Below are positions 1 to 61,756 of a stretch of 64,000 nucleotides of DNA, one piece after another. Source of the stretch: Phyllobates terribilis (taxonomy: Eukaryota). A model generated the notes under the pieces. That model was not told the origin of the DNA. It searched no databases and saw nothing but the letters and a program-made list of their open reading frames with translations. Location: the NCBI RefSeq assembly GCF_046119375.1, contig NW_027362769.1, forward strand, positions 391,158,001-391,222,000, read 5' to 3'. The position numbers and the translations under genes were made by a program. Position 1 is the stretch's first letter, and every line of letters starts with the position of its first letter.

Positions 1-303
1 GAGCGAAAACCACAGATGCGGTGGGCAAGGCAGAGCAGAGCTGAACCGCCGGAGCGGTGGACAAGGCAGAGCAGAAAGAAGCTGCTGGAGCGGTGGGCAA
101 AGCAGAGCAGAGAGAAGCCGCCGGAGCGGTGGGCAAGTCAGAGCAGAGAGAAACCACTGGTGCGGTGGACAAGGCAGAGCAGAGCGGAACTGCCGGAGCG
201 ATGGGCAGAGCAGAGCAGAGAGAAGCCGCCGGAGCGGTGGGCAAGTCAGAGCAGAGAGAAACCGCTGATGCGGTGAGCAAGTCAGAGCAGAGAGAAACCG
301 CTG
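1..303 (-). repeat. Inverted fragment of the ~39-bp internal tandem repeat of the LTR family at 19124-21040
   Basis: Reverse complement of ~20180-20480 (the + ORF 57..320 and - ORF 20050..20421 share the same translation). Joins the forward LTR copy at ~307. Confidence 0.85.
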
Positions 304-306
304 GTA

Positions 307-6689: not shown

Positions 6690-7043
6690 CGCTCAGCTAA
6701 CATGAGGCAAGGGGCAGAAATATCATAAGTATCGAGTCCTGACTCTTGATTGCAGAGATGGTGGAGGAAGAGACTGAATCTATAGACTGAGGTAGAGGAG
6801 AGATCCCACCGCAATCCCTAACCAGACCACCAGCCTTCTCCTGACATGGTGGAGTACAGGTAGGGAGAAAAATTCCACCGCATCTGAATCTGAACCTTCA
6901 CAGAGATGATAGTGTGCACATGATCGACCGTGCCTCGGCTTTTTCCTGCAGCCCCACAGAGAATGAAAAGAGCATCTAACCTCACGCTCCATTTTGTAGC
7001 AGGGATAAAAATGTCCCTCCTGCTGATCGATGCAGGTCTCCAT
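6690..7043 (-). mobile_element. Possible degraded L1/Tx1-type ORF2 fragment (copy at ~31630-31980)
   Basis: Minus-strand LWGCRKKPR followed in another frame by GGL loosely resembles the post-RT FLW..KKPRI...GGL segment of L1-clade ORF2. Weak, by eye only. Confidence 0.3.
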
Positions 7044-7232
7044 GGTTGGACCCTTACTTCAGATAGCTGACAACATATTTCTATTGGACATCCCCTTTAA
7101 TAATCATTGGGAAGCAATCAGTAGGGTCTGATACTGCTGGGCTCCCCTGACTAAGGACTACAAGAAGCAGGGACTTTGTAGAAAGAATTTGTCTTAATAA
7201 AAAGTGTGTCTTAAAGTCCAGCAGCACGTTAG

Positions 7233-8439
7233 TGTGGAGCCCATGTGGGTCCAGTTTCCACAGAGGTACTGCATCTCAGCCAGAGGTGTGGTACCCCACT
7301 CTCATGTAAGGAGGGAGCACTACCCGGGACTCACCCACTCACATGCAAAACCACATCACTCCATTAGTGATGGTCCAGATTGCTCCTGAGGGAGAGCACA
7401 GATCCGGTCCCTGTCTGGAGGATGGAACTAGGTAGAGGAGGTGGGTGAAGGAAGGACTGAAGGTAGAGGGGACCACACAGAGTGACAGTTGGTGATGTGG
7501 GTCACATGACAGACAGTATAAAAGAAGGGTAGAAATATCTAGAAGAGGCCAGTGAGTGAGGACCGTTGAGGAGTAGGGTCCAGACGGAGTGGGGGCCTAG
7601 TCAGAGGGACCCAGTAGGAGAGAGAAGCCCAGAGCAGTGAGAAAGGCTCCAGAGAGAGAGAGAGGATCTTAGGGGCACAGGAAGTGCGGAGTCCACCCGT
7701 GCGCCCGAGTTCTCGATGACCATGAAGGGATCAGGTCGCAGTAGGGGACTGGCCCCAGACTAGTGGAGGACTGGAAGACTCAGCTAGCAAACTGGAGGTT
7801 GCAGTATCTTCAAGTGCCGTAGCCAAAAACCACACACATTCGCTGAAATTGTGGCTATATAGGACAAAAGGGGACAAAGAGGACGTCGCCCGACAAGGCC
7901 CGTGGCCACTAGCTTGAGACACGGTGTGTGAGGCGCAGGGCAGGAGGGTGAGAGCCAGTGCAGAGAGAGACGACCCGGCAAGGTACACAAGAAGGGGGTC
8001 CCGTTCAAGTGCACCCAAGTTATCTGAGAGTTGGCTGGATCACTTCCCCGGAGGACACAGGACTCGGTGGGCTGTTATAACCTGCTGGCAGTTGTAACCT
8101 GGAACATCATAAGAACTGTGAGTAAAAACTTGAAGACTGCACCCCGCTGTGTCCTTTACTTACTTGTTGCATCACCTGCCTTGCACTACAACACTAACAT
8201 CATAGAACACCTCTAACTGCCCTGGGGCCTATCTCTACCTGTGGAGAGCTGAACCATCTCTGCTGCGTCACCAATAACCCTGGTGGATCTGAACAGCAGC
8301 GGCGGCCACCTATAGCCGCATACCACGGGTGGCGTCACAAAACTTTATTCCCCAATTGACTTTTCTTATTGCCACCGTGACTATCCCAAAAAGGACCGGC
8401 CCGGCTACTGAGTACCCCATGGCCCCAGGAGGCGCGTCA
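7233..8439 (+). mobile_element. Solo LTR with 4-bp TSD
   Basis: TG...CA termini (TGTGGAGCCC...GGCGCGTCA) flanked by TTAG at 7229-7232 and 8440-8443. Distantly related to the LTRs at 50946 and 60487. Confidence 0.9.
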
Positions 8440-8504
8440 TTAGTATCAACCTGAGGCCTCATTCAGATTTCCATCTTTTCCATCAGTGCATTGTCCGTGT
8501 GCCC

Positions 8505-8710
8505 AGCACACCACGCCTGCCCAGCACACCACGCCTGAACAGCACACCACACCTGCCCAGCACACCACACCTGCACAGCACACCACACCTGCACAGCACA
8601 CCACGCCTGCACAGCACACCACACCTGCACAGCACACCACGCCTGCACAGCACACCACACCTGCACAGCACACCACACCTGCACAGCACACCACACCTGC
8701 ACAGCACACC
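8505..8710. repeat. 18-bp tandem repeat (CACACCACACCTGCACAG), ~11 copies
   Basis: Direct reading; duplicated at ~33435-33647. Confidence 0.95.
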
Positions 8711-9160
8711 GACCACTGCTAGGTAATGGTCAAGTGAATGAGTTTCCCACAGAACAATGGTCTATGTATAAAATAAATCTCATCATTCTCCAGTCTCATC
8801 ATTGTACCGACCAGAATCGTGCATGTAATGGCAGGAGGCTCCAGTCCACAATAAGGAGGAGCTCACTGAGCGGCACCATGTGAACCACTGGCGGATGAGG
8901 CTGCTCTGATCTTTATAATGGTCTCCTGACTCCAGTCTGATGGGAATAAGAGGAGCTGAGCTTCTGCTTATCTCACATCTGGAGCTCGGCTGACTTCTCC
9001 TTCCCCGAACTGGTGGTGGATTCTCTACACTGCAAACAGGTGGAGTCACTACAACTCTCATCCTACACACCATCCTGTCAATCATTTTCTTCCTCAACAG
9101 CAAACAATCTCTGAGCTGCAGGATTAATAGTTTATTCTCAGAAATCTCCACCCTTTTTAC

Positions 9161-9206: not shown

Positions 9207-9284
9207 ATGGCGTCTGCTGAGCTGAGGGACGAGCTGAACTGCTCCATCTGCCTGAGCCTCTATACAGATCCCGTATCCCTGTAA
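9207..9284 (+). pseudogene. 25-codon TRIM stub (MASAELRDELNCSICLSLYTDPVSL*)
   Basis: Identical to the first 75 nt of the 34144 gene, then unrelated sequence beginning with an in-frame TAA. Confidence 0.93.
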
Positions 9285-19018: not shown

Positions 19019-21042
19019 CTTCGTTTCCTCTAATGGTCAGAAGAGGTAATCCTCTTGAAGAGAAGGATTGGCCTCCAAATTCTCTGCAGAAGACCCTTGC
19101 AGGCTTAAAGGGGAGGCGGGTACTGTAACATCCCTGGCGGCGTACTTGCATAGTGCACCACCTCCCACTACGCAAGACCGCAATCTTACCTGTTAATCCA
19201 GCCTACAAACCTTGCTCCAGTTCATGCTGTGTGCATGTCTCTTGACTGACTGCTTAGGGCGGCGGCCCGGTTACTTCCTGATTCTTGTTGCTGCTGTGGG
19301 CGCACCCCTAATGCGTCTCCAGCCTATTGCTGTGAGTCACTGGTTATTTAAGCCCCTTCCACTCAGAAGGAGGTGCCTGAGCAACACCTTCACTCAGTTA
19401 GTCTTTGCTACTGAATTGCCAGGTCCTGCCCTGTCTCTAGTCTGTTTCCGCCACTCTGGGGGCTGCATACCCAGACCTGTTATCTCTGACTTCTAATTTG
19501 TTTTCGCCACTCTGGGGGCTGTATACCCAGGCTCGTTCTTGTATCTCATTGCAGTAGCAGTTCCTGTCTGAACTGTATCCTAGCCTGTTACCTGTTTGTC
19601 TCTATATCAGTACCTTCCCTTTTCCTGCAGTATCTGAACCTGCACCTAACTCCAACTCGTTGTCTCTGTACTTCTGTTTGTGAGTTTTGTGTCCCCTCAC
19701 TACTTCATAGGAAGTACCTTGTGTGTATCTAGTTCTGCTTGTCCCTTTTCCCTTCCTCCGTATCTTCCTCCTGTGTTCTAGCCATCTTCCTGTATTTTCC
19801 AGTCTGTTCCATGTGAACAGAGCCCTGTCCTCTCTACCTTCTCCACCGCACCTGCGGTTTCGCTCCGCTCAGTCTTGCCCACCGCTCCGGCGGTTTCTCT
19901 CTGCTCTTACTTGCCCACCGCCCGGCGGCTTCTCTCTGCTCTGACTTGCTAACCGCACCAGCGGTTTCTCTCTGCTCTGACTTGCCCACCGCTCCGGCGG
20001 TTTCTCTCTGCTCTGACTTGCCCACTGCTCCGGCGGCTTCCCTCTGCTCTCACTTGCTAACCGCACCAGCGGTTTCTCTCTGCTCTGACTTGCCCACCGC
20101 TCCAGCGGCTTCCCTCTGCTCTGCCTTACTCACCGCTCCGGTGGCTTCTATCTGCTGTGACTTGCCCACCGCTCCGGCGACTTCTCTCTGCTCTGACTTG
20201 CTCACCGCATCAGCGGTTTCTCTCTGCTCTGACTTGCCCACCGCTCCGGCGGCTTCTCTCTGCTCTGCTCTGCCCATCGCTCCGGCGGTTCCGCTCTGCT
20301 CTGCCTTGTCCACCGCACCAGTGGTTTCTCTCTGCTCTGACTTGCCCACCGCTCCGGCGGCTTCTCTCTGCTCTGCTTTGCCCACCGCTCCGGCGGCTTC
20401 TTTCTGCTCTGCCTTGTCCACTGCTCCGGCGGTTCAGCTCTGCTCTGCCTTGCCCACCGCATCTGTGGTTTTCGCTCCGCTCTGCTTGCTCACCGCACCA
20501 GCAGTTCCTCTCTGCTCTGCCTTGTCCTCCACTCCAGCGGTTTCGCTTTACTCTGCTTGTCTACCGCATCTGCGGCTCTGTACCTGTCTCCCAGTCTGTA
20601 CTGGACCCTATCCAGCCTGCGCTCCAACCTGCTTGTACCTCCCTGTCTGCACTCCAACCGTGCTTGCCGGTATCTCCCTGCCTGCTTACCAGCCGTGCTT
20701 GCCAGTGCCCACCTGTCTGCATACCAGCCGTGCTTGCTAGTACCCACCTGTCTGCATACCAGCCGTACTTGCCAAAACCCACTTGCCTGTATGCCAGCCT
20801 AACCTGCCTGTTTCTGCATTCCCTGGTGTGGGTCAACAACTGTGACCGGGGTCTGACCTGGAGTCGCACCTGGTCCCTCTGCTCGGTTCCTCCTTGGTCC
20901 ACGGAGTCGACTATGCCGCCGTGCGACCTTGGTCGGATCGGGTTGATACTTAGTTACACCCCTCCAGGCACTCCTCGGTTCATGGTACAGTTGGATCACT
21001 AATCACACTCACGCCAGTCAGTCCGGGCGCGAGCGTAACAGT

Positions 21043-25131: not shown

Positions 25132-26726
25132 GAAGATAAGGATTGGCCTCCAAATTCTCTGCAGAAGACCCTTGCAGGCTTGAAAAAGAGGGGGCGTAAA
25201 GGGGGGGGGTACTGTAACATCCCTGGCGGCGTGCTTGCATAGTGCACCACCTCCCACTATGCAAGACCGCAATCTTACCTGTCAGTCCATCCTGCAAACC
25301 GTGCTCCAGTTCATGCTGTGTGCATGTCTCTTGACTGACTGCTTAGGGCGGCGGCCGGGTTACTTCCTGATTCTTATAGCTGCTGTGGGTGCAACCCTAA
25401 TGCGTCTCCAGCCTATTGCTGTGAGTCACTGGATATTTAAACCCCTTCCATCCACAAGGAGGTGCCTGAGCAACACCTTCACTCAGTTAGTCTTTGCTAC
25501 TGAATTGCCAGGTCCTGTCCTGTTTCTAGTCTGTTTCCACCACTCTGGGGGCTGCATACCCAGACCTTTTATCACTGACTTCTAGTCTGTTTCCGCCACT
25601 CTGTATACCCAGGCTCGTTCTTGTATCTCATTGCAGTAGCAGTTCCTGTCTGAACTGTATCCTAGCCTGTTACCTGTTTGTCTCTATGTCCGTACCTTCA
25701 CTTTTCCTGTAGTATCTGAACCTGCACCTAACTCCAACTCGTTGTCTCTGTACTTCTGTTTGTGAGTTTTGTGTCCCCTCGCTACTTCATAGGAAGTACC
25801 TTGTGTGTATCTGGTTCTGCTTGTCCCTTTTCCCTTCCTCCGTATCTTCCTCCTGTGTTCTAGCCATCTTCCTGTATTTTCCAGTCTGTTCCATGTGAAC
25901 AGAGCCCTGTCCTCTCTGCCTTGTCCACTGCACCTGCGGTTTCGCTCCGCTTAGTCTTGCGCACCGCTCCGGCGGTTTCTCTCTGCTCTGACTTGCCCAC
26001 CGCCCGGCGACTTCTCTCTGCTCTGCCTTGCTCACCGCACCAGCAGTTTCTCTCTGCTCTGACTTGCCCACCGCTCCGGTGGCTTCTCTCTGCTCTGCTT
26101 TGCCCACCGCTCCGGCGGCTTTTCTTTGCTCCGCCTTGTCCACCGCTCCGGCGGTTTTCACTCCGCTCTGCTTGCTCAACGCACCAGCAGTTCCTCTCTG
26201 CTCTGCCTTGTCCTCCGCTCCGGTGGTTTTGCTTTACTATACTTGTCTACCGCATCTGTGGCTCTGTACCTGTCTCCCAGTCTGTACTGGACCCTATCCA
26301 GCCTGCGCTCCAACCTGCTAGTACCTCCCTGTCTGCACTCCAGCAATACTTGCCAGTATCTTGCTGTCTGCATACCAGACACGCTTGTTAGTGCCCACCT
26401 GTCTGCATAGCAGCCGTGCTTGCCATTACCCACCTGTCTGCATACCAGCCGTACTTGCCAATACCCACCTGCCTGTATGCCAGTCTAACCTGCCTGTTCC
26501 TGCATTCCCCGGTGTGGGTCAACAACTGTGACCGGGGTCTGACCTGGAGTCGCACCTGGTCCCTCTGCTCGGTTCCTCCTTGGTCCACGGAGTCGAGTAA
26601 GCCACCGTACGACCTTGGTCGGATCGGGTTGATACTTAGTTACGCCCCTCCAGGCACTCCTCGGTTCATGGTACAGTGGGATCACTAATCACGCTCACGC
26701 CAGTCAGTCCGGGCGCGATCGTAACA

Positions 26727-29700
26727 GTATGCATGGTCCCCTCACCCCCCAATCCTGGTATGCATGGTCCCCTCACACCCCAATCCTGGTATGCATGGTC
26801 CCCTCACACCCCAATCCTGGTATGCATGGTCCCCTCACACCCCAATCATGGTATGCATGGTCCCCTCACACCCCAATCCTGGTATGCATGGTCCCCTCAC
26901 ACCCCAATCCTGGTATGCATGGTCCCCTAACCCCCAATCCTGGTCTGCATGGTCCCCTCACCCCCCAATCCAGGTCTGCATGGTCCTCTCACCCCCCAAT
27001 CCTGGTATGCATGGTAGCCCTCATCCTGGTATACATGGAACCCCATCCATCATCCTGGTATGCATGATACTCCTCATCCCCATTGCTGGTATGCATGGCA
27101 CCCCTCACCCCCCAATCCTGATGTGTATGGCACCCCTCATCCCCCAGTCCTGGTTTGCGAGGCATCCCACAATCCTGGTATGTATGGCACCCCTCATCTT
27201 CAATCCTGGTATGCATGGCACCCCTCATACCCCAATCCTGGTATGCATGGCACCCCTCATCCTCCAATCCTAGTATGCATGGTACCCTTCATCCCCCAAT
27301 CCTGGTATGCATGGTCTCCTCACTCCTCAATCCTGGTATGCATGGTCCCCTCACACCCCAATCGTGGTATGCATGGTCCCCTCACCCCCCAATCCTGGTA
27401 TGCATGGTCCCCTCACCCCCCAATCCTGGTATGCATGGTCCCCTCACCACCCAATCCTGGTATGCATGGTCCCCTCACCCCCAATCCTGGTATGCATGGT
27501 CCCCTCACCCCGCAATCCTGGTATGCATGGTCCTCTCACCCCCCAATCCTGGTATGCATGGTACCCCTCATCCCTATTCTGGTATGCATGGTACCCCTCA
27601 TCCTGGTATACATGGAACCCCATCCATCATCCTGGTATGCATGATACTCCTCATCCCCATTGCTGGTATGCATCTCACCCCTCACCCCCCAATCCTGATG
27701 TGCATGGCACCCCTCATCCCCCAATCCTGGTATGCGAGGCATCCCACAATCCTGGTATGTATGGCACCCCTCATCTTCAATCCTGGTATGCATCTCACCC
27801 CTCATCCCCCAATCCTGGTATGCATGGTCCCCTCATCCCCCAATCCTGGTATGCATGGTCTCCTCATCCCCCAATCCTGGTATGCATGGCACCCCTCATG
27901 CCCCAATCCTGGTATGCATGGTCCCCTCACACCCCAATCCTGGTATGCATGGTCCCCTCACACCCCAATCCTGGTATGCATGGTCCCCTCACACCCCAAT
28001 CCTGGTATGCATGGTCCCCTTACCCCCAATCCTGGTCTGCATGGTCCCCTCACCCCCCAATCCTGGTCTGCATGGTCCTCTCTCCCCCCAATCCTGGTAT
28101 GCATGGTAGCCCTCATCCTGGTATACATGGAACCCCATCCATCATCCTGGTATGCATGATACTCCTCATCCCTATTGCTGGTATGCATGGCACCCCTCAC
28201 CCCCCAATCCTGATGTGCATGGCACCCCTCATCCCCCAATTCTGGTATGCAAGGCATCCCACAATCCTGGAATGCATGGCACCCCTCATCTTCAATCCTG
28301 GTATGCATGGCACCCCTCATCCTCCAATCCTAGTATGCATGGTACCCCTCATCCCCCAATCCTGGTATGCATGGTCTCCTCACTCCTCAATCCTGGTATG
28401 CATGGTCCCCTCACACCCCAATCGTGGTATGCATGGTCCCCTCACCCCCCAATCCTGGTATGCATGGTCCCCTCACCCCCCAATCCTGGTATGCATGGTC
28501 CCCTCACCACCCAATCCTGGTATGCATGGTCCCCTCACCCGCAATCCTGGTATGCATGGTCCCCTCACCCCCCAATCCTGGTATGCATGGTCCTCTCACC
28601 CCTCAATCCTGGTATGCATGGTACCCCTCATCCCTATTCTGGTATGCATGGTACCCCTCATCCTGGTATACATGGAACCCCATCCATCATCCTGGTATGC
28701 ATGATACTCCTCATCCCCATTGCTGGTATGCATGGCACCCCTCACCCCCCAATCCTGATGTGCATGGCACCCCTCATCCCCCAATCCTGGTATGCGAGGC
28801 ATCCCACAATCCTGGTATGCATGGCACCCCTCATCTTAAATCCTGGTATGCATCTCACCCCTCATCCCCCAATCCTGGTATGCATGGTCCCCTAATCCCC
28901 CAATCCTGGTATGCATGGTCTCCTCATCCCCCAATCCTGGTATGCATGGCACCCCTCATGCCCCAATCCTGGTATGCATGGTCCCCTCACCACCCAATCG
29001 TGGTATGCATGGTCCCCTCACCCCCCAATCCTGGTATGCATGGTCCCCTCACCCCCCAATCCTGGTATGCATGGCCCCTCACCACCCAATCCTGGTATGC
29101 ATGGTCCCCTCACCCCCAATCCTGGTATGCATGGTCCCCTCACCCCCCAATCCTGGTATGCATGGTCCTCTCACCCCCCAAATCCTGGTATGCATGGTAC
29201 CCCTCATCCCTATTCTGGTATGCATGGTACCCCTCATCCTGGTATACATGGAACCTCATCCATCATCCTGGTATGCATGATACTCCTCATCCCCATTGCT
29301 GGTATGCATGGCACCCCTCACCCCCCAATCCTGATGTGCATGGCACCCCTCATCCCCCAATGCTGGTATGCGAGGCATCCCACAATCCTGGTATGCATGG
29401 CACCCCTTATCTTAAATCCTGGTATGCATCTCACCCCTCATCCCCCAATCCTGGTATGCATGGTCCCCTCATCCCCCAATCCTGGTATGCATGGTCTCCT
29501 CATCCCCCAATCCTGGTATGCATGGCACCCCTCATGCTCCAATCCTGGTATGCATGGTCCCCTCACCACCCAATCGTGGTATGCATGGTCCCCTCACCCC
29601 CCAATCCTGGTATGCATGGTCCCCTCACCCCCCAATCCTGGTATGCATGGTCCCCTCACCACCCAATCCTGGTATGCATGGTCCCCTCACCCCCAATCCT

Positions 29701-30722
29701 GGTATGCATGGTCCCCTCACCACCCAATCCTGGTATGCATGGTCCTCTCACCCGCCAATCCTGGTATGCATGGTACCCCTCATCCCTATTCTGGTATGCA
29801 TGGTACCCCTCATCCTGGTATACATGGAACCCCATCCATCATCCTGGTATGCATGATACTCCTCATCCCCATTGCTGGTATGCATGGCACCCCTCACCCC
29901 CCAATCCTGATGTGCATGGCACCCCTCATCCCCTAATCCTGGTATGCGAGGCATCCCACAATCCTGGTATGCATGGCACCCCTCATCTTCAATCCTGGTA
30001 TGCATCTCACCCCTCATCCCCCAATCCTGGTATGCATGGTCCCCTCATCCCCCAATCCTGGTTTGCATGGTCTCCTCATCCCCCAATCCTGGTATGCATG
30101 GCACCCCTCATGCCCCAATCCTGGTATGCATGGTCCCCTCACCCCTCAATCCTGGTATGCATGGTCCCCTCACCCCTCAATCCTGGTATGCATGGTCCCC
30201 TCACCCCTCAATCCTGGTATGCATGGTCCCCTCACCCCTCAATCCTGGTATGTATGGTACCCCTCATCCCTCAATCCTGGTATGTGTGGCCCCCTCATCC
30301 CCCAATCCTGGTATGTGTGGACCCCTCATCCCCCAATCCTGGAATGTGTGGCCCCCTCATCTCCCAATCCTGGTATGTGTGGCACCCTCACCTTCCAATC
30401 CTGGTATGTATGGCACCCCTCATCCCTTTCATGCTGCACACACATACCAAAAAAATAAACACTTATACTCACCTTTCTTCCCTGTGCTCCAGCGCTGCGG
30501 TGTCCTGTTCTGCTGAAGGCTGAGGGAGGAGTGTGGCACCGGAGTACACGAGTGCCCATACCGCGCTGTCCGGTAGACACACTGAAAATGTGGTATGCGA
30601 GGCATCCCACAATCCTGGTATGCATGGTACCCCTCATCCCCAAATCCTGTTATGCATAGTCCCCTCATCCCCCAATCCTGATATGCATGGTCCCCTCACC
30701 CCTCAATCCTTGTATGCATGGT
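26727..30722. repeat. Second copy of the 31-bp higher-order minisatellite
   Basis: Same unit and six marker blocks as 1693-5782. Confidence 0.97.
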
Positions 30723-32169
30723 TTGCTTACCTTCAGATTTCTTAGCTTCTGATGATCAGCACGTATTATCCTCCTTGTAGTACCTCTGGTGCCTGTCAGT
30801 CCATCTGTAGAATAGATCAGTCGTCACTCTGTAGTTTCTTTCTGATTCTTGTGACAAAGTTAGTGGATTTCCTGACACGTGAAAAACAGCTGTTCAGCTC
30901 GTCTCGTCTCTTCTCTCTCACCTTTGTTCAAGAAGGAAATTCACTTAAAAACACGAAAAATCAGGACTGGCTGAGGCTAGCCAAATGTAAAATAAATACT
31001 TCTTTCTGTATTTTTTCTCTATTGAGGACTTCTCAAAGTATTAATATCAAGATATTCTTATAAAAAATGTATCTATTTATTCTCGGGTTGTCCATTAAAA
31101 AGAATTATTGCAGAAGGTACATACAATAATTAGTTACAAAGTGATTGTCCATTTGTCCATAATTAGCTTAATTGTTGAGATTCACCCATCTTTCCCTGGG
31201 ATTCTGGATGGTAGATTGCGTCTGTCTGTGTCCAGCACGTGAGTCCGTGTAAAGAACGTGTTTCCTGGGCCTACATCAGGAGCTGGTTTACACACAGCAC
31301 CTCGTCCTGTGTCCTGTGGAATGGCAAGAGAGACCCCCCTGTCTCTAACATGGGCTTTTATAGGCCGGTCATATGGCACCTGCTCTTCTAATTATGGTGC
31401 TGAACCAAAAATACACAAATAGCGCATGTCAGCTAAAAACCCTAACACGATGGCTGATGCAATCTACAGATCTCAGAATTAAGAATAAAATGAATATCCA
31501 GAATTAATATTTAACACCCTCACGACTCCAGCACTGATGCTCCTGAGATTTCCTGGCAGTCGGTGATGACATGGAACAGTAATTACATCATTGGGTGACC
31601 CTGAGAGCGGCAGGGTGGGCTCTGGACGCTCAGCTAACATGAGGCAAGGGGCAGAAATATCATAAGTATCGAGTCCTGACTCTTGATTGCAGAGATGGTG
31701 GAGGAAGAGACTGAATCTATAGACTGAGGTAGAGGAGAGATCCCACTGCAATCCCTAACCAGACCACCAGCCTTCTCCTGACATGGTGGAGTACAGGTAG
31801 GGAGAAAAATTCCACCGCATCTGAATCTGAACCTTCACAGAGATGATAGTGTGCACATGATCGACCGTGCCTCGGCTTTTTCCTGCAGCCCCACAGAGAA
31901 TGAAAAGAGCATCTAACCTCACGCTCCATTTTGTAGCAGGGATAAAAATGGCCCTCCTGCTGATCGATGCAGGTCTCCATGGTTGGACCCTTACTTCAGA
32001 TAGCTGACAACATATTTCTATTGGACATCCCCTTTAATAATCATTGGGAAGCAATCAGTAGGGTCTGATACTGCTGGGCTCCCCTGACTAAGGACTACAA
32101 GAAGCAGGGACTTTGTAGAAAGAATTTGTCTTAATAAAAAGTGTGTCTTAAAGTCCAGCAGCACGTTAG

Positions 32170-33376
32170 TGTGGAGCCCATGTGGGTCCAGTTTCCACAG
32201 AGGTACTGCATCTCAGCCAGAGGTGTGGTACCCCACTCTCATGTAAGGAGGGAGCACTACCCGGGACTCACCCACTCACATGCAAAACCACATCACTCCA
32301 TTAGGGATGGTCCAGATTGCTCCTGAGGGAGAGCACAGATCCGGTCCCTGTCTGGAGGATGGAACTAGGTAGAGGAGGTGGGTGAAGGAAGGACTGAAGG
32401 TAGAGGGGACCACACAGAGTGACAGTTGGTGATGTGGGTCACATGACAGACAGTATAAAAGAAGGGTAGAAATATCTAGAAGAGGCCAGTGAGTGAGGAC
32501 CGTTGAGGAGTAGGGTCCAGACGGAGTGGGGGCCTAGTCAGAGGGGCCCAGTAGGAGAGAGAAGCCCAGAGCAGTGAGAAAGGCTCCAGAGAGAGAGAGA
32601 GGATCTTAGGGGCACAGGAAGTGCGGAGTCCACCCGTGCGCCCGAGTTCTCGATGACCATGAAGGGATCAGGTCGCAGTAGGGGACTGGCCCCAGACTAG
32701 TGGAGGACTGGAAGACTCAGCTAGCAAACTGGAGGTTGCAGTATCTTCAAGTGCCGTAGCCAAAAACCACACACATTCGCTGAAATTGTGGCTATATAGG
32801 GCAAAAGGGGACAAAGAGGACGTCGCCCGACAAGGCCCGTGGCCACTAGCTTGAGACACGGTGTGTGAGGCGCAGGGCAGGAGGGCGAGAGCCAGTGCAG
32901 AGAGAGACGACCCGGCAAGGTACACAAGAAGGGGGTCCCGTTCAAGTGCACCCAAGTTATCTGAGAGTTGGCTGGATCACTTCCCCGGAGGACACAGGAC
33001 TCGGTGGGCTGTTATAACCTGCTGGCAGTTGTAACCTGGAACATCATAAGAACTGTGAGTAAAAACTTGAAGACTGCACCCCGCTGTGTCCTTTACTTAC
33101 TTGTTGCATCACCTGCCTTGCACTACAACACTAACATCATAGAACACCTCTAACTGCCCTGGGGCCTATCTCTACCTGTGGAGAGCTGAACCATCTCTGC
33201 TGCGTCACCAATAACCCCGGTTGATCTGAACAGCAGCGGCGGCCACCTATAGCCGCATACCACGGGTGGCGTCACAAAACTTTATTCCCCAATTGACTTT
33301 TCTTATTGCCACCGTGACTATCCCAAAAAGGACCGGCCCGGCTACTGAGTACCCCATGGCCCCAGGAGGCGCGTCA
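32170..33376 (+). mobile_element. Solo LTR with TTAG TSD (duplicate of 7233-8439)
   Basis: Same 1207-bp length, termini and TSD. Confidence 0.9.
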
Positions 33377-34097
33377 TTAGTATCAACCTGAGGCCTCATT
33401 CAGATTTCCATCTTTTCCATCAGTGCATTGTCCGTGTGCCCAGCACACCACACCTGCCCAGCACACCACGCCTGCCCAGCACACCACGCCTGCCCAGCAC
33501 ACCACACCTGCCCAGCACACCACACCTGCACAGCACACCACGCCTGCACAGCACACCACACCTGCACAGCACACCACGCCTGCACAGCACACCACGCCTG
33601 CACAGCACACCACGCCTGCACAGCACACCACACCTGCACAGCACACCGACCACTGCTAGGTAATGGTCAAGTGAATGAGTTCCCCACAGAACAATGGTCT
33701 ATGTATAAAATAAATCTCGTCATTCTCCAGTCTCGTCATTGTACCGACCAGAATCGTGCATGTAATGGCAGGAGGCTCCAGTCCACAATGCGGACAAGCT
33801 CACTGAGCGGCACCATGTGAACCACTGGCGGATGAGGCTGCTCTGATCTTTATAATGGTCTCCTGACTCCAGTCTGATGGGAATAAGAGGAGCTGAGCTT
33901 CTGCTTATCTCACATCTGGAGCTCGGCTGACTTCTCCTTCCCCGAACTGGTGGTGGATTCTCTACACTGCAAACAGGTGGAGTCACTACAACTCTCATCC
34001 TACACACCATCCTGTCAATCATTTTCTTCCTCAACAGCAAACAATCTCTGAGCTGCAGGATTAATAGTTTATTCTCAGAAATCTCCACCCTTTTTAC

Positions 34098-48646: not shown

Positions 48647-50945
48647 CATAGCTCCCAACCGTCCCGCATACTGATTTTGAGCACCGTCCCGCAGTCCCGG
48701 CCGGGAGCTTATGGCTCCCGCAGGGCAGTGAGAAGCAGCCGACACGCCCCCTCTTATATCAGGCTACACCCCCTCTGCCTCCCCTTCAGTGGCGTATCTG
48801 GGGGGGCAGAGGGGGTGTAGCCTGATTTAAGAGGGGGCGTGTCGGCTGCTTCTCACTGCCCTGCGGGAGCCATAAGCTCCCGGTCGGGACTGCGGGACGG
48901 TGCTCAAAATCAGTATGTGGGCGCAGTCGGGCGGCTTAACGTGGAAATCCGAAGTGTCTCCCCCGGCGGCTACATTCTGCCGCCCCCCGGACTGGGAGTA
49001 GGCAGTTCTTTGAGCCTGGTGTCAAGCTGACAGTCGGCTCACAGTACCTGCAGCACACCAGCACCCAGTGTTCAATTGTAGACGTGAGTACAATTAAAGT
49101 TCTGACCGCCAGGTCAGAGCAACTTCAGGAGCGTGATCATGTCATGTGATCACGCTGCTGACATCGCACGCCAGCACAACAGACAGAGGAGCACATTGGT
49201 GGTAAGTGGTCCACATTAGTGGAGCTAAAGACCCCAATGATTATATGTTGGGGGGGTTATTTAGTGTAACAGGACTGGGGGAGGTTTACTGTGTGTGGAG
49301 GGGAATTTACTGTGTGTGGGGGGTGACACTCCCCCGGGGCCGTGGGGTACTCGGCAGCACGGGCCCTCAGATGCTTGGGGGATATGACGGTGGCGGGCCC
49401 GGTCCGTGGCCCAGGGCAGTCAACTGAAAAGGGGAGGTAGTTTATTTGGGATTTTTGGGAATTGTTGTGACGCCACCTGTGGAATGCTGCTAGGGGAGCC
49501 GCCGCTGCGGAGCAGTCCTCTGGAGCTGGTGTTATGGCAGCAGGGGTGGTGTGGCTCTCCACAGGTAGAGCTTAGCTCAAGGGCAGTGTAGGGGTAGATG
49601 GTGAATGCTGGCGAGAGAGACGGCAGGACGATCCCGGAGGAAGTACGGGCGCACACACATAGGGGTAAACTTCAATACCTTTACTGGTGGTGATGCAGGT
49701 GCGGTCCAGGGTACTCAGGGCGAAGGGTGCATTTCTGGACTCTCCCCAGTGAGAGGGTGTAGGGCCTCCTGATCTGTGTCTTTTACTCTCTAAGCTTCGG
49801 GCCTGCCTGGAGCTAGGCCTGGCTTGCTTACTGCTTCTTTCTTCTACCTGCTGTCCTGGAGTTAGGGCTTTGTCCTGGCTCCCACTATTCCTGGTCGTTG
49901 GAGCCTTCGTAGTACCTAACCCTGTTGCTGTAGTCAGCGTTTGGTTAACCTGGGGCTCCCTCCTCTTCCCTTCTCTGGCCGTGCCCCACCAGTGACTCTA
50001 CGTTTGTCCGGCTGCCTCGGGCCTTCTCTTGGTACGCTGATTTCTGCGTCCCTGACCCTATGTGGTGGGCCTTCGTGGTAGGTGTAGTGAGGGGTCGCAC
50101 CGAGATATAGTTACGACCGCTGGTCTTTGGCTGAGGATTAGTCGCCTCTACCAATTTGGGATCCGGTACCCTGTTCTGCCAACCCGTCACCCGCAATCTC
50201 CTGGGCCTATGGGGTTCCTTCTTCTCTCGTGTCTCTTGGCCTCTCTTAATGTTCTGTTCCTTGTTTCCTTTCTCTTCTGTTCCTGTCCTCTCTGCTGTTT
50301 CTGGCCTCCACTCCAGGCCTGCCTCGTGGAGCTGGGCCCAGACTGAGCCACAGCTCCCTGTCAGCCCTCTCTGGCTGAACTCCTCTCTGAACTCACTCCC
50401 CGGACTGAACACTGTTCTAAGATGGTGCCCACCTTATATACCTCCCTCTATGTGTGAGCCCAGGTGACTAGCAACCAATGGGCTCCTACCTATGCCCAGA
50501 AACCCACCCCTATCTGCTCCTACACCACTGGGTATTCCACCCCCCTCCCCACTCCAGCCAGGGACAGATGCTGTCGTGCCTGCACTTCTGTCTAGTGGGA
50601 GCACCGTTGAGCTGTCCCTCGGAAATGGGGTGTGTGTGGTGCATGCAGCCTACCGAGCCCTGGTCCACACTCCATCCTTACCCGGGAGTGGGATATCACA
50701 CCTCTGGTTTGAGGTGCAATACCCCTGTAGCAGCCGAGCCGTCAGGGTGCTACACATGCAGTGCATGCGCTGTGAGAATTCAGAAGCCTGAAGACACATA
50801 GAATTTCAGTCACTGCCAGCGCCCCTCTGACAACTCCTCCTGCCGAGGGAGAAACATAATGGTAAATGGGTGTGGATTGGGATGTGGCCAGGGGCATGGC
50901 GCATGATTTCTGCCTCTTTCTGTTCTAAAAAAGTTGTGAGGTATG
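48647..50945. mobile_element. Composite non-autonomous hAT-like element inserted in the TRIM3 leader
   Basis: CATAGCTCCCAAC left end and GTTGTGAGGTATG right end. CTGTAGG (7 bp, or 8 counting the shared G) is duplicated at 48640-48646 and 54786-54792. Confidence 0.7.
49324..50754 (-). mobile_element. Solo LTR related to the 50946 element, reverse orientation
   Basis: Reverse complement starts TGTAGCACCCTGACGGCTCGG and ends GGGGGAGTGTCA. No matching TSD found. Confidence 0.8.
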
Positions 50946-51978
50946 TGTAGCACCCCGAGGACTCGGCTGCTACAGGGGTATTGCACCTCGAACCAGAGGT
51001 GTGATATTCCACTCCCGGGTAAGGATGGAGTGTGGACCAGGGCTCGGTAAGCTGCATGCACCACACACACCCCATTTCCGAGGGACAGCTCAACGGTGCT
51101 CCCACTAGACAGAAGTGCAGGCACGACAGCATCTGTCCCTGGCTGGAGTGGGGAGGGGAAAGTACACCCAGTGGTGTAGGAGCAGATAGGGGTGGGTCTC
51201 TGGGCATAGGTAGGAGCTCATTGGTTGCTAGTCACCTGGGCTCGGGTGTTAGAAGGAGGTATATAAGGTGGGCACCATCTTAGATCAGGGTTCAGTTCAG
51301 TGGAGACAGTCTGAGGAGAAGACAGGAAGCAGAGCCCCTGCATGGGCTCTGCTCTGTCAGGAGGCTGGAGCCTGAGAGAGAGAGAGAGAAGAAGGAACAG
51401 AAAGGAAAGTAGGAAAGGAACTGGAACAGAGGAGAAAGGAAGCAAGGGACACAGAGAAAGGCCCAGAGACACGAGGACAGAAGGAACCCCATATGCCCAG
51501 AGGAGATACTGGGTGAAGGGTTGGCAGAACAGGGTATCTGATCCCAAATTGGTGGAGGCAACAGATTCCTCAGCCAAAGACCGGAGGTTGTTACCACATC
51601 TTGGTGCGACTCCTCACTACATCCACCAGAAAGGCATACCGTATAGGGTCAGGGAAACCGGAGAGAGGTTTCGCCAACAGAAGGCTCGAGGAAGCTGGAC
51701 AAAGGTGGGTCACTGGTGGGGACGGCCAGTAGAAAGGAAAAGAGGGGAGCTCTGAACCACACTCTGGAATTGCCTGGGAGTTGACCGAGTCCCTCACCTG
51801 GTGAACGCAGCACGGGTCACCGCCACGGAGAACTACAACCCCCAGCGATCCGGCTCCGGGTATTCCCCCTGCACAGCAGCACAGCACAGGCCCAGGGGGC
51901 GCCTCAACTTTAGCATAGTCGGCAAGATCATTACCAACCCGCCACAAGCGGGTATTGCGTGCCTGAAGAAAACTGCAC

Positions 51979-52818
51979 ATGTACCTTAAAAAGAAGTCTC
52001 CCGCCATTTCCAGAAGTTTCCCGCTGTCCAGAGTCGTTTCCCGCCATCCGGAGCCGATTCCCGCCATCAGACGCCATTTTGGACCGTTTCCCGCCATCTT
52101 CATCCGTTTTTCCCGCCCTGGCAGAGCGGACGCCATTATGTGCGCACCAAAGGACAGCAGGAAGCCGACTCCCATCGTGGGAAAGGTCCCAGAGTGGCGC
52201 CAAAGGAGGGGCCCGCCCCCAGCAACAATAAGTACAGCAATGGAGATGTCCATCAACGTGGGGGGGCTGCCCCTGAAGGTGATTGTCAGCAGATGCCCCC
52301 AAGACCAACCCCCATGGGGGCGGATAGGAAAGAAAACTGAGGGGCTGGGTGCGGCCTGGATCAGTCTGGACCTGCTGCACCCGGAGATGGAGGGAGCAGA
52401 AAACTCCACCAGCACCCTGGCCCGCAGCCTGCTGCAAGCGGAGCCACCCTGCAGCCTGACAGAACTGCTGGCCCAACTGCCTAAAGACCCGGATTGTGCG
52501 CGCGCAGCGCTGGAAGATCTGAATAGAAGAATGGTCCGGGCGCAGCGGGATGTGTTTGCCGGATGGAGAGCGGAGATGGCCCGGCAGCATGGAGGTGACC
52601 AGCAGAGGACCCCGCCGGAACCGGGCAGCGCGCTTACCACTGGGCGCGGAGAAGAGGGACCGGCAGCTGCAGACGACGCCGCGGAGGAGGCCACGGAGAC
52701 CGAGGCAGGTAATGGGGACGCCACCACCCCAAGCCCTGGGAACACCAGCCTGCCCTCACCCTCCGTTGCGGGACCCGAGGCGCCGGGGACCGTACCTGAG
52801 ACCACCGCCACCAGCTAG
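51979..52818 (+). CDS. ORF1 of the LTR element, unknown function (probable N-terminal half of a frameshifted ORF)
   Basis: Open 279 codons after the PBS (ATGs at 52138 and 52240); predicted helical then acidic low-complexity sequence. No Gag motif recognised. Confidence 0.55.
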   Translation: MYLKKKSPAISRSFPLSRVVSRHPEPIPAIRRHFGPFPAIFIRFSRPGRADAIMCAPKDSRKPTPIVGKVPEWRQRRGPPPATISTAMEMSINVGGLPLKVIVSRCPQDQPPWGRIGKKTEGLGAAWISLDLLHPEMEGAENSTSTLARSLLQAEPPCSLTELLAQLPKDPDCARAALEDLNRRMVRAQRDVFAGWRAEMARQHGGDQQRTPPEPGSALTTGRGEEGPAAADDAAEEATETEAGNGDATTPSPGNTSLPSPSVAGPEAPGTVPETTATS

Positions 52819-53752
52819 GTCTCAGGCAGCAAGCATCGCCGTCACGCCCCGCCCCGCGCTGTGCCCTCTGAACCCTGGCGCCGTACAGCGTGAGACGTCA
52901 CAGGCCAGGACGCAAGACCCAGCACACCCGGGCGCCGCTGCCTCACCAGCGCCCCCTACCTTGGCGGTGCCACCCCCGGGCACGACCGACAAGCGACCGC
53001 CGCAAGGCCGAGTGCCCCCGGGTGCTGCCACCCGTCCGAAGCCCACAGTGCCACCCCTGGGCGCGGACCTGTATGCCCAACATACCAGCCCGGACGGGCT
53101 ACCCTTTGAATGGCCACCGGAGTTCGCCAACCCCCGTCTCCGGAAAGAGCGACCCCTGAGTGAGCCTCTGATCCCGGCCCCGGAGCCCGCCAACATCGCT
53201 CCACCCCTGCCGGAGGATGCCCAGTTTGCATGGGACCCCACTGGCGAGAACCTCATGGGCTTCACCCAGGAGACCCGGACGGAAGAAGCCCAGCGCCTGG
53301 AGTGCTGCCGTCAGCAGCTAGCCACCTATGAAAGAGAGCGGCGGCAGAGGCGCATCAGGGAGCAGCGACTCCAGGCCAGAAGCGCGGAGCAGAAGAGGAG
53401 GGCCCGTCAAGACTTCCACGCCATCCGCAGTCCCCGAGCCACCGGGACCGTAGTCAAGTTCCAGCTAGAGAATGGCTGGGGCTTCATAAGAGACCCGGAG
53501 GCTGACACCGACCTATTTGTCACCAGAAGGGACGTGGAAAGCCACCTGCCGGAGGGACATCACGGACGTGACTTGTACCCCGGTGACTTGGTCACTTACA
53601 CCCGGCACCAGGGTGCCAAAGGACTGTGCGCCCTCCATGTACATCGTCTGACTGAGGAGGAGCTGCGGTATCGCCCAGACACATACTACCCTGAGGATCC
53701 GGACGGATCTGAAGAGTATGGCGAAGGAGCATCAGGAGGACACCATTATTAG
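52550..53752 (+). CDS. ORF2: Pro-rich linker, Arg/Glu/Gln-rich helix and C-terminal cold-shock domain (53438-53650)
   Basis: GTVVKFQLENGWGFIRDPEADTDLFVTRRDV...RDLYPGDLVTYTRHQGAKGLCALHV aligns colinearly with the YBX/Lin28/CspA cold-shock domain. Confidence 0.85.
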   Translation: MCLPDGERRWPGSMEVTSRGPRRNRAARLPLGAEKRDRQLQTTPRRRPRRPRQVMGTPPPQALGTPACPHPPLRDPRRRGPYLRPPPPARSQAASIAVTPRPALCPLNPGAVQRETSQARTQDPAHPGAAASPAPPTLAVPPPGTTDKRPPQGRVPPGAATRPKPTVPPLGADLYAQHTSPDGLPFEWPPEFANPRLRKERPLSEPLIPAPEPANIAPPLPEDAQFAWDPTGENLMGFTQETRTEEAQRLECCRQQLATYERERRQRRIREQRLQARSAEQKRRARQDFHAIRSPRATGTVVKFQLENGWGFIRDPEADTDLFVTRRDVESHLPEGHHGRDLYPGDLVTYTRHQGAKGLCALHVHRLTEEELRYRPDTYYPEDPDGSEEYGEGASGGHHY

Positions 53753-54840
53753 AGAATGGTAAAGTGGAACTGTAAATAGTTACCCGTCGGGGTACAAGAA
53801 CTGTTGTGAAATTGTTGACTGTGTGAACTGTTACCTGTGTGCCCCTAATCCCTAACCAGGCTGAGGACTGTGAGCAGCCATTCCCCTATTCCCACTGGCC
53901 GAGGACTGAGAGCGGCCATACCCTTGTACATAGTTGCGCTTTTTAAAGCGCCCCCTACTGGTTTTATACAAGAACCGCAACGTCTACCTCAAAGTTAAAA
54001 TGGACTGTTGCACCTTTACCTGGTCACAAGTTGCACGGTGGCCAAAGGTCAAGAATGTGTTTTTTTTTTTTTGAAGAATGTTTTACTTGAAAAAGTTTTA
54101 TATGCTGCTAGAATAATAATGCAAATGTTACCTCATCTTGGTGCGACCCCTCACTACATCCACCAGAAAGGCATACCGTATAGGGTCAGGGAAACCGGAG
54201 AGAGGTTTCGCCAACAGAAGGCTCGAGGAAGCTGGACAAAGGTGGGTCACTGGTGGGGACGGCCAGTAGAAAGGAAAAGAGGGGAGCTCTGAACCACACT
54301 CTGGAATTGCCTGGGAGTTGACTGAGTCCCTCACCTGGTGAACGCAGCACGGCTCAGGCGGTCCTAACTGTGCACAAGTGACCTGATAAAGAACTGTGAG
54401 TAAAGCATTGAAAACTGCAACTTGCACGTCTCTGTGGTTCCTCGCCGCACCAGCACCATTAGTACTGGGACGCTCACACCATCACTCCCATCATTATCCA
54501 CACTAGCTGCCCTGAGGCAATACTCCTCCCGTGGGGAGTTATCCCATACTCGGCTGCGCAACCAACATCAGCCTCAGCGGTCGGCAGCGCAGCGGCGGTC
54601 CCCACTGACCGCAATCCACGGGTGGCGTAGTCGGACACTTATTACAACATTTAGACTGCCACTGGTTTGACCGCCCTGGGCACGGACCGGGTCACCGCCA
54701 CGGAGAACTACAACCCCCAGCGATCCGGCTCCGGGTATTCCCCCTGCACAGCAGCACAGCACAGGCCCAGGGGGCGCGTCATATGCTGTAGGGGTTAATT
54801 CTCCTGCACAGACTCTCCGCCCTTCTTACCAGAAGAAACT

Positions 54841-54874: not shown

Positions 54875-56401
54875 ATGGCGTCTGCTGAGCTGAGGGACGA
54901 GCTGAACTGCTCCATCTGCCTGAGCCTCTATACAGATCCCGTATCCCTGAGATGTGGACACAACTTCTGCCGCTCGTGTATTGTGAGTGTGCTGGATGCC
55001 CAGGAGGCGGCTGGAGGGTATTCCTGTCCTGACTGCAGAGCAGAATATCCGGAGCGTCCGGCCCTGAAGAAGAACCGGAAGCTGAGGAATATAGTGGAGC
55101 GTTTCTCATCTACTCAGCCTGATATGGAGGAGACCAGAATCTTCTGTACTTACTGTACAAAGTCTCCTGTACCGGCTGTGAAATCCTGTCTGCAGTGTGA
55201 GGCGTCTTTTTGTGAAGAGCATCTAAGTAGACACAGTAAGTCATCAGAACATACGTTAGTTGATCCCACTGTTTCCCTGGAAGAAAGAAAATGCTCCACA
55301 CACAAGGAGATGCTGAAATATTACTGTCCTATAGACGCCGCCTGTATCTGTGTGTCCTGCTGGGTGGCCGGAGACCACAAGGGACATGACGTGGAGCTAC
55401 TGAACGTGGCCTCTGAGAAGAAGAAGGAGAAACTGAAGAAACAATTAGATGATCTAAACCCACAAAAATCAGAAATTCAGACAAGAGTCCAGAATCTGCA
55501 GGATCGTAAAAGGAAGATCCAGGAAAAAGCCTCCGATAAGAGGAATAAAGTCAGTAAGATATTCATGGACACTGAGAAGCAACTGGAAATGGCAGACAGG
55601 AGGAGAAGATTGTGTCCCAGATATCTCATCTGACCAGGAAGCTGGAAATACAGGAGGACGAGCTGTCCAGGAAGATGCGTCACATGGAGGAGATGTGTCG
55701 TGTCACCGACCCAATAAGACTCTTACAAGAAAGTGACATTACAGTGTGTAGTCATGGAGGTGATGAGGACACAGGAGGAGATGGTGGAGAGGTCTGTTCT
55801 GAGGAGGATCTGGATGAGGTTCTGATCTCACTGACCTTACACCGATCTGTGAGGAATATTGTCACCAATGTAACATCAGATCTTGGGGTCCATGTCCCAG
55901 ACATATTGCTGGATGTGGACACTGCTCATAGATGTGTGAAGATATCAGAAGATCTGAAAACAGCAACAAGATCAGAAGAAGAACAGGAGAAACCAAAATC
56001 ACCAGGAAGATTTGTGACATTTTCCCAGGTGTTAAGCAGATGTGGCCTCTCATCAGGACGACATTACTGGGAGGTAGAGTGGAACCAGATAGGAGGATGT
56101 GAGATCGGATTGTCCTATCCCAGTATAGAAAGGGAAGGAGATGAGTCTGGTATTATATATAATGATAAATCTTGGTGTTTGTTTATGTATGATGGAGAAT
56201 ATAATGTATGGCACAACTCCGTCAGATCAGTCCTCAGTGTAAAGTCAACATGTCCAACACTTGGAGTCTTCTTAGACTATGTCCTTCTATGAGCTGTGTG
56301 ACCCCATCAGACACTTACACACCTTCACCGCCTCCTTCACTGAACCCCTACATGTTATCTTCTATGTGAATGATGGAGCCTCTGTTACAATAAGAAGCTG
56401 A
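54875..56401 (+). pseudogene. TRIM paralog with two frameshifting deletions
   Basis: Versus the 15878 gene: 28-nt deletion at 55596/55597 (stop at 55631-55633) and 14-nt deletion at 56281/56282. The homologous stop is at 56399-56401. Confidence 0.93.
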
Positions 56402-60486: not shown

Positions 60487-61756
60487 TGTAGCACCCCGAG
60501 GACTCGGCTGCTACAGGGGTATTGCACCTCAGACCAGGGGTGTGGTATTCCACTCCCGGGTAAGGATGGAGTGTGGAACTGAGCTCAGATAGCTGCATGC
60601 ACTACACTCACCCCATTTCCGGGGGACAGATCAACGGTACTCCCACCAGATAGATGTGCAGGTACGACAGCTTCTGTCCCTGGCTGGAGTGGGGAGGGGG
60701 GAGGAACATCCCAGTGGTGTAGGAGCAGATAGGGGAGGGACTCTGGGCATAGGTAGGAGCCCATTGGGTGCTAGTCACCTGGGCTCGGGTGTCAGAAGGA
60801 GTATATAAGGTGGGCACCATCTTAGGACAGGGTCTTTTTGGTCTGCTCTGTGCAGAGAGGAGCTCAGCCAGAGAGGGCTGACAGGGAGCTGTGGCTCAGT
60901 CTGGGCCCAGCTCCAGAGCCAGGCCTGGAGATGAGGCCTGAAGCAGAGAGAGAGAGACAGGAGAAGAAGGAGGAACAGAAACACCAGGAGAGGCCCAGAG
61001 ACGCAAGAGAAGAGGGAACCCTGAGATCCCACGAGTTAACGGGTGAAGGGTTGGCAGAACAGGGTACCGGATCCCAAACTGGTGGAGGCCAATTATCCTC
61101 AGCCAGGAACCGGAGGTCGTGGACAAGTTTTGGCGCGACCCCTCGCCATATCCACCAGGAAGGCATACCACGTATAGGGTCAGGGAAGCCGGGAAAGGTT
61201 TCACCACCAGAAGGCCCGAGGGAGCTGGACAAAGGTGGATCCCTGGTGGGGACGGCCAGTAGGAAGGAAGAGAGGGGAGCTCAGGACCACGCTCTGGAAC
61301 TGCCTGGGAGTTGGCCGAGTCCCGCACCTGGTGGACGCAGCACGGCTCGGGTGGTCACTTTTGGCCGAAGTGATCTGAACACCAACTGTGACTAAAGCTG
61401 TGAAAACTGCAATGCACGTCTCTGAGCTTCCTTGTCACACCACCACTACCACTATCATCATTTCCTGCTTCACCAGCTGCCCTGAGGCTATACCTCTCCC
61501 GTTGGGGGTTATCCCATCCACGCTGCACAACCACACCACCGGCCTCAGCGGTCTGCCCTGCAGCGGCGGCTTCATAGCCGCATTCAACGGGTGGCGTAGT
61601 CGGACACTAATACCATCATATCAATAACGCCACTTAGTTTGACCACCCTGGGCACGGACCGGGTCACCGTCACGAGGACTACTACCCCTGTCAGATCCGG
61701 CTCCGGGTATCCCCCGCATGCGCAGCGCAGCACAACATGGCCCAGGGGGCGCGTCA
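60487..61756 (+). mobile_element. Solo LTR of the cold-shock-element family
   Basis: TGTAGCACCCCGAGG...GGCGCGTCA with 4-bp TSD TATA; start nearly identical to 50946. Confidence 0.92.

Follow-up and report, generated by a model that had tools for sequence, protein, structure and literature searches.

The long terminal repeat (LTR) retroelement at positions 50946-54781 of a 64,000-nucleotide stretch of the genome of the frog Phyllobates terribilis (contig NW_027362769.1, positions 391,158,001 to 391,222,000, from an assembly of 10.6 Gb; the stretch is hereafter called the window) was found to be a defective copy of a family of non-autonomous LTR retrotransposons of about 5 kb, which keeps all the cis signals for reverse transcription and integration. 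The single open reading frame (ORF) of this family encodes a protein with a cold-shock domain (CSD) near its C-terminus, and selection on the transposing lineages has conserved the C-terminal helix and the CSD.

The window copy starts with TGTAGCACCC and ends with GGGCGCGTCA, with the duplication TATG on either side, and its TG...CA ends and TATG duplications bear out the integrated LTR element described at this position in a first-pass annotation, which was made from the sequence alone. As was also stated there, the primer-binding site lies 4 nucleotides past the 5′ LTR (the LTR ends at 51906 and the site starts at 51911); it has three mismatches to the family site, TGGCGTAGTCGGCAGGAT. PF00313 was the sole Pfam domain in the three element frames scanned (nt 53441-53644), and the profile run placed it at residues 307-374 of the frame 52523-53749 (E = 1.2e-7, 32 bits versus a cut-off of 27), in agreement with the CSD that had been reported at the ORF end. 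The PF00313 scores of element-type ORFs were 32, 32.9, and 29.5 bits against the gathering cut-off of 27. No gag, protease (PR), reverse transcriptase (RT), or integrase (INT) was detected by Pfam in the three frames, as had been claimed, and the family ORF was unlike the gag and pol of the helper element introduced below when compared by BLASTP; a gag/pol origin of the ORF was rejected for this lack of similarity.

The window copy is damaged. About 330 bp are missing from its 5′ LTR when compared with another natural copy, and a deletion of about 880 bp, which sits at a TGTT microhomology, runs from the end of the 3′ untranslated region (UTR) through the polypurine tract into the 3′ LTR, of which the first 644 bp are gone. 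Where the remnant of the 3′ LTR overlaps the 5′ LTR, the identity is 98.3% over 231 bp and 98.9% over 94 bp, and the two LTRs were thus assigned to one insertion. An 8-bp gap near 52802 breaks the ORF into two frames, and a further gap, of 9 bp, lies near 53001. Because of this split, the ORF originally called at 52550-53752 is not the real one; family copies have one 596-aa frame, the first ATG of which corresponds to 51979. No G-to-A hypermutation was seen in the window copy, and in a comparison aimed at the empty site the TRIM paralogues of the window matched only the right flank of the element.

To describe the family, 39 loci were read. Of these, 20 came from the 150 listed best CSD matches and were chosen so as to have long open frames and to lie on a range of contigs; the others came from a sample of 20 among the 150 listed PF00313 matches, from which one YBX-like pseudogene was excluded. 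Both LTR ends were found 4.5-6.5 kb apart in 31 of the 39 oriented loci, with an identical 4-bp duplication (mostly TATN or CATA) in 24 of these 31. A typical copy measures 4.8-5.1 kb, with LTRs of 1.2-1.33 kb, one ORF of about 600 aa, the 18-nt primer site 4-5 nt past the LTR, and the polypurine tract ACCAGGGGGGAA. Within the window subfamily, the two LTRs of a copy are 97.3-99.8% identical (median 99.0; 16 of 20 measurable), and in other subfamilies 79 to 100%; the family is therefore both old and very recently active. Head-to-tail arrays of LTR, internal region, and LTR with a period of 3.6-3.8 kb are common in both CSD families (the second of which is described below; match lists of contigs C4, C9, C11, and C1 of genome G000).

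A 25-nt pattern that joins the polypurine tract to the LTR start had 26,823 exact matches in the genome, and its reversed control had none. When the first 20 of these junctions on contig C1 were read for 1.1 kb upstream, 16 were found to have a full, stop-free CSD, one a partial CSD, and three were internally deleted relatives; pol was present at none of the 20. On the basis of these 20 places, at one end of one contig, we estimate about 21,000 CSD copies, equal to about 0.1 Gb or 1% of the assembly. A CSD codon pattern, which fits all 30 window-subfamily loci and 3 of 22 others, had 2,695 genome matches, and the figures of 37,332 and 33,380 candidates were obtained by loose counting and should not be read as copy numbers. 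Matches to the element, CSD included, at 85% likeness were found in four contig runs of uncertain type, which cannot show transcription. No pol was found between the LTRs of any CSD copy read, one nested foreign element aside. The proposal that a retroelement family carries the CSD is upheld by these data: the domain lies between LTRs in copy after copy, without pol and under purifying selection, and the profile match is present, the copies number in the tens of thousands, and the ratio of nonsynonymous to synonymous divergence (dN/dS) is far below 1.

The selection acting on the domain was estimated with the 16 CSDs from the first 20 C1 junctions, which were taken in order and not selected by protein similarity. 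Their dN/dS was 0.125 (120 pairs, not independent; codon bootstrap 0.07-0.20), with a maximum of 0.24 among the 117 usable pairs, and the corresponding pN/pS was 0.19 in frame versus 1.8 and 2.0 in the shifted frames. The contrast between a dN/dS of 0.125 and shifted frames near 2 indicates that the CSD is kept by selection. Between six clusters of 50 distinct frames (a usable frame was available in 58 of 66 loci), the CSD dN/dS was 0.12-0.32 at a dS of 0.65-2.3. Copies in this comparison were ranked by protein similarity, which biases the values low within the window subfamily, a bias that the set of 16 removes. Along nine ORFs, dN/dS was lowest in the motif block and the CSD (0.20 each), followed by the helix (0.24), the N-terminal helices (0.42), and the Pro/Ala linker (0.58). 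Upstream of the CSD, replacements were enriched in single-copy private compared with shared changes (38:25 versus 15:24, p = 0.04), as is expected if selection acts on source elements.

In the AlphaFold model, a 48-residue helix was followed by a five-strand barrel (pLDDT 79), and by Foldseek the barrel best matched CspA (TM 0.88), YBX1/2, and their kin. A profile of 15 element-type CSDs was compared with the PDB and matched YBX1 at 55 bits and CspA at 42. The domain had first been called YBX/Lin28-like; the YBX part of this label is partly supported, with YBX1/2 the best PDB profile matches, and the Lin28 part is not, as neither Lin28 nor CARHSP1 was among the 35 PDB profile matches. By Pfam, the element ORF likewise has no CCHC knuckles of the Lin28 type. 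The three aromatics of RNP-1 and RNP-2 are kept. The Trp of KWF, which we take to be the 5-methylcytosine (m5C) reader of YBX1, is kept in none of the 15 CSDs and the His of FVH in 2; in the window CSD, the replaced Trp and His noted earlier are seen as Trp-to-Lys and His-to-Thr. The face of the CSD has also gained basic residues (TRR). The best ESM Atlas scores were 0.85, to generic CSD clusters, and serve as a lead only. The N-terminal helical block was modeled as three helices, the fold of which was matched by no viral structure at E ≤ 0.001.

A candidate helper was spotted through one CSD copy inserted in the gag of a related element. This helper is an 8.05-kb Ty3/Gypsy element with a PNMA-type gag (PF14893, E = 1.7e-7) and knuckle, followed by PR, RT, RNase H (RH), and INT; no env-like ORF was found in its 8 kb. 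Among 20 of 150 listed matches to that gag, RT and integrase matches were present in all 20 and a CSD in none. The LTRs of the helper are about 1.05 kb and start with TGTGGCACCCC, its LTR end and primer site are the same as those of the CSD element, its polypurine tract is near-identical, and all 20 copies align to the CSD element at 70-84% across U5, primer site, and leader. Its target sites are AT-rich like those of the element, though it is without a CSD. These shared sequences strongly suggest that this 8-kb Ty3/Gypsy element with PNMA-type gag supplies the Gag, RT, and integrase with which the CSD element is copied. In addition, a 3.5-kb mosaic family was found in which a helper-type LTR, leader, and 77 aa of gag are joined to the post-CSD tail and 3′ UTR of the element (for example, L120 and L121 at G000:C1:92812000-92821999 and C2:143963000-143972999). 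The mosaic family has no CSD and is very abundant (60,625 loose candidates), and its joins suggest that element and helper RNAs met in one particle, as template switching would give.

The priming of the family was also examined. Elsewhere in the genome, longer tRNA 3′ pieces abut the LTR end, with T-arm, long variable arm, and CCA, and one reaches a TGA anticodon loop; at L102-L104, L116, and L117 as much as about 55 nt of tRNA sequence, CCA included, lengthens the primer site. These features support tRNA-Ser priming, and we take the primer to be tRNA-Ser on the strength of these pieces. No full tRNA-Ser gene was called: the six loci examined for the pattern proved to be pieces of reverse-transcribed tRNA beside LTR ends, one of which was given as Ala by ARAGORN, and Rfam gave no tRNA. 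The U5 of both element and helper has a second copy, 10-12 nt long, of the tRNA 3′ complement, 150-180 nt before the primer site (in the window at 54623, 61592, 8330, 33267, and 49475 on the minus strand, and at loci L032-L144), and reads GGTGGCGTCAC in relatives with another Ser primer site. This second site is possibly a decoy, an alternative priming site, or a relic of template switching.

We lean, with slightly better than even confidence, toward a reading in which the element protein would be a cis-preferring, single-stranded-RNA-binding factor that aids the stability, packaging, or reverse transcription of its own RNA in helper particles. The CSD would load the protein onto the RNA that encoded it, and the helices would oligomerize or dock on the helper particle; the element RNA would then be more stable, or better packaged and reverse transcribed, than that of the helper. 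Cis preference is the simplest reason for selection to keep the amino-acid sequence in a family of about 20,000 copies, because a product acting purely in trans would be a shared good. Several observations weigh against this reading: (i) nearly all copies have other residues in place of the Trp and His of the usual binding face, and affinity or ligand may therefore differ; (ii) the N-terminal helical block matched nothing that would directly support docking on Gag; (iii) the sampled helper copies are older (median LTR identity 97.2%, 15 of 20 measurable) than the youngest CSD copies (up to 100%), which together with their differing U3 suggests that the working helper may be an unsampled subfamily; and (iv) the abundance of the CSD-less mosaic family and the 3 of 20 sampled elements without the CSD region indicate that the CSD is not needed in cis for every spreading element.

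The last of these observations would also be accommodated by a protein that counters silencing in trans, by binding PIWI-interacting RNAs (piRNAs) or tRNA fragments aimed at the primer site or by competing with host YBX, and that in this way frees both element and helper. The success of CSD-less derivatives and of the mosaic family fits such a shared product, the second 10-12-nt U5 site of element and helper could be a small-RNA decoy, and repeated CSD capture by bird endogenous retroviruses (ERVs) was called adaptive by its authors (PMC12287698). A shared product should however experience weak selection per lineage, yet dN/dS was 0.1-0.3 in every subfamily sampled, and we regard this explanation as unlikely, if worth serious attention. 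Less probable still is an action of the CSD on single-stranded DNA (ssDNA) or chromatin instead of RNA, as an aid to strand transfer in reverse transcription or a target-site tether in integration. PDB titles show that CSDs bind ssDNA besides RNA, and both the basic residues gained on the face (TRR) and the bias of targets to TATN/CATA would suit this role, but the protein is neither fused nor similar to integrase and the CSD-less helper has similar AT-rich targets.

An equally improbable explanation is that the ORF is an accessory gene of an unsampled autonomous element with CSD plus gag-pol, and that the 5-kb elements are deletion derivatives that inherit its selection. The loci read number only some dozens, and the mosaic family does have gag and the post-CSD tail at opposite ends; against this, none of the 20 helper copies has a CSD, the CSD copies read have no pol between their LTRs (the nested foreign element excepted), the ORF starts about 70 nt past the primer site with no room for gag, and the pol-less layout is found in all subfamilies at a dS of 0.65-2.3. 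That the domain is a decayed host retrocopy of YBX, Lin28, or CSDE1 passively trapped between LTRs is close to inconceivable, even with a broken window copy and real CSDE1 and YBX-like retrocopies in the genome: it is refuted by the selection signal (dN/dS 0.125), made untenable by the frame control and the near-saturated dS, and inconsistent with only about 30% identity to YBX1, the lack of attached host-gene sequence, and a tree group of its own across four genera.

The donor and range of the domain were examined by phylogeny and protein search. In a tree of 59 rows, 28 element-type CSDs formed one group (89/80, unstarred) apart from the CSDE1 and YBX-like rows, and in the approximately unbiased (AU) test of 31 rows neither a YBX-like sister (p = 0.27) nor a CSDE1 sister (p = 0.53) was rejected; YBX was represented in the tree by two YBX-like proteins and one YBX-like pseudogene, with no full vertebrate YBX included. 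The capture of a Y-box-type domain, as first suggested, thus agrees with the best PDB match and is not singled out by the tree. The element CSD is about 30% identical to YBX1, with no other host-gene sequence attached, and searches with the YBX-like pseudogene as the query found only itself. Intronless CSDE1 retrocopies (L051-L056, G000:C1:734.44 Mb) and the single decayed YBX-like pseudogene (L071) were observed in the genome.

A search of 1.84 billion representatives gave 154 matches. The ten single-domain top matches looked up came from Ranitomeya (4), Anomaloglossus (3), Phyllobates (1), Engystomops (1), and a Logan contig (1). No salamander, fish, or Xenopus protein was among these ten, a weak negative because transposon ORFs are mostly masked in annotations. 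Element CSDs were also seen fused into gene models of R3HCC1 in Phyllobates (P0004) and astacin/CUB in Ranitomeya imitator (P0155), by either exon capture or annotation error. A second pol-less family (L157-L159; 3 of 3 loci fetched) has unrelated LTRs of 1,032 bp (TGTAATAG...CTTACA), the same primer site, and an 819-codon frame with a CSD 33% identical to the element CSD, and shorter CSD elements exist with other Ser-type primer sites. Three local CSD copies that keep the RNP-2 His (VYVHY; L145, L146, and L151 at G000:C4:791.48-791.52 Mb) group with the element CSDs and have no LTR pair within 10 kb; they are possibly an old or domesticated copy. Taking the family with these relatives, we tentatively suggest, at somewhat below even confidence, that Neotropical frogs harbor an old, so far undescribed clade of pol-less satellite retrotransposons that code for a protein and have LTRs of at least two unrelated kinds. 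In this clade, gag-pol may have been replaced by a host-derived CSD protein, which would serve, in the manner of a satellite virus adaptor, to win helper Ty3 particles or to escape germ-line small-RNA silencing, and the clade would account for about 1% of the genome.

The coordinates of the element and its related LTRs are collected in Table 1. The related LTRs noted in the first-pass annotation proved to be of three kinds: the copy at 60487-61756 is a solo LTR of the family with a TATA duplication, that at 49324-50754 is chimeric and without duplication, and those at 7233 and 32170 belong to another family, with a TTAG duplication and only about 60 bp of LTR start in common with the element family. 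The LTRs at 7233 and 32170 are identical because they lie in a large segmental duplication (1-8800, 19500-21000, and 25500-33700), which also has tandem arrays of 31, 36, and 18 bp. The window also has a cluster of intronless TRIM genes (RING, B-box, PRY-SPRY) at 54875-56292 and with ATGs at 9207, 15878, and 34144. Between the end of the element and the ATG of the paralogue at 54875-56292, the frame of which is split, lie 93 bp, and the LTR could thus affect the promoter of this paralogue. On the minus strand, a 1,370-codon open frame at 41769-37660 represents another Ty3/Gypsy family and is 98% identical to the element nested in L044.

Table 1. Parts of the CSD element and related LTRs in the window (positions are those of the window).
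Feature	Position	Strand
Left target-site duplication TATG	50942..50945	+
5′ LTR of 961 bp, without about 330 bp of R/U5 that family LTRs have; TATA-like box near 51260	50946..51906	+
Primer-binding site, tRNA-Ser type; 3 mismatches to family sequence	51911..51928	+
5′ leader with CCCGCCATC repeats, common to the gag-pol helper family; likely packaging region	51929..52140	+
5′ part of the single family ORF, with conserved N-terminal helical block; stop after 8-bp gap near 52802	51979..52818	+
3′ part of the ORF, other frame: Pro/Ala linker, PLGADL..WDPTGENLMGF motifs, helix of about 48 residues, CSD, acidic tail	52802..53752	+
CSD (PF00313), predicted five-strand OB fold	53441..53644	+
3′ UTR, shortened; polypurine tract lost	53753..54125	+
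3′ LTR remnant, first 644 bp gone; AGTAAA poly(A)-like signal; second 12-nt primer-like site at 54623	54126..54781	+
Right target-site duplication TATG	54782..54785	+
Solo LTR of the element family, about 80% identical; TATA duplication	60487..61756	+
Chimeric related LTR, without target duplication	49324..50754	-

Membership of the element among autonomous Ty3/Gypsy elements or endogenous retroviruses was rejected, as it is without gag, PR, RT, RH, INT, and env. As a rule, non-autonomous LTR elements are regarded as passengers that are non-coding or encode gag only. The LARD, TRIM, gag-only TR-GAG, and Cassandra (5S cargo) elements keep their LTRs, primer site, and polypurine tract and depend on a helper, as does the Phyllobates element; they are non-coding, gag-coding, or carry a piece of an RNA gene, and we know of no LARD/TRIM-type element with a selected, non-gag RNA-binding protein. 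With a non-gag protein under strong selection over many subfamilies, a parasite of a retrotransposon here appears to own a molecular tool. No description of the family, or of a CSD in a frog retrotransposon, was found in the full-text literature searched, outside of which lie subscription papers, Repbase Reports, and Dfam; the word "cold" is absent from the available main text of PMC4131045, PMC12822217, and PMC12208295. The repeat expansion of Phyllobates is described as largely unclassified (62.6% of reads; PMC12208295), and the present family is one named contributor to it, at an estimated 0.1 Gb. As a caution, models of a "CSD-containing protein" gene in these frogs are often transposon ORFs.

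The Xenopus elements 1A11, xretpos, and lambda-olt 2-1 are likewise frog LTR elements with one ORF and no pol (PMC4585706). In that account, the 71-kDa product of 1A11 is described as Gag-like, the primer of xretpos is tRNA-Arg, the Xenopus copies number tens to hundreds, and the word "cold" does not occur; these elements are set apart by description. The Barthez lineage of Ty3/Gypsy, listed as the PNMA progenitor (PMC3670739), has a PNMA-type gag in common with the helper, which is likened to it by gag alone. Compared with the Y-box proteins YBX1/YBX2 and FRGY2, the element CSD has the same fold and the same long β3-β4 loop, and these proteins are its best PDB profile match; it differs in its identity of about 30%, in the replaced Trp and His, and in its position near the C-terminus past a long helix, with the alternating basic/acidic tail of the Y-box proteins absent. 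LINE-1 ORF1p also has a coiled helix followed by an RNA-binding domain and acts in cis on its own RNA. It serves as a working analogy only: its fold is RRM, the element class is another, and no homology is claimed.

The bird ERVs are like the Phyllobates element in that PF00313 lies within an LTR retroelement, and the domain was reported in 46 ERVs and captured several times (PMC12287698). The bird ERVs differ in that RT is present, each has few copies, the position of the domain varies, and their CSDs are near those of the host (E of about 1e-25 in two supplement rows); no selection test on these CSDs is reported in the available text (PMC12287698). The Phyllobates family, by comparison, is pol-less and associated with Ty3, numbers about 20,000 copies, and has a CSD that is diverged and subject to purifying selection. 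It thus offers, beside the capture by bird ERVs, a high-copy case for asking what a CSD does for a retroelement.

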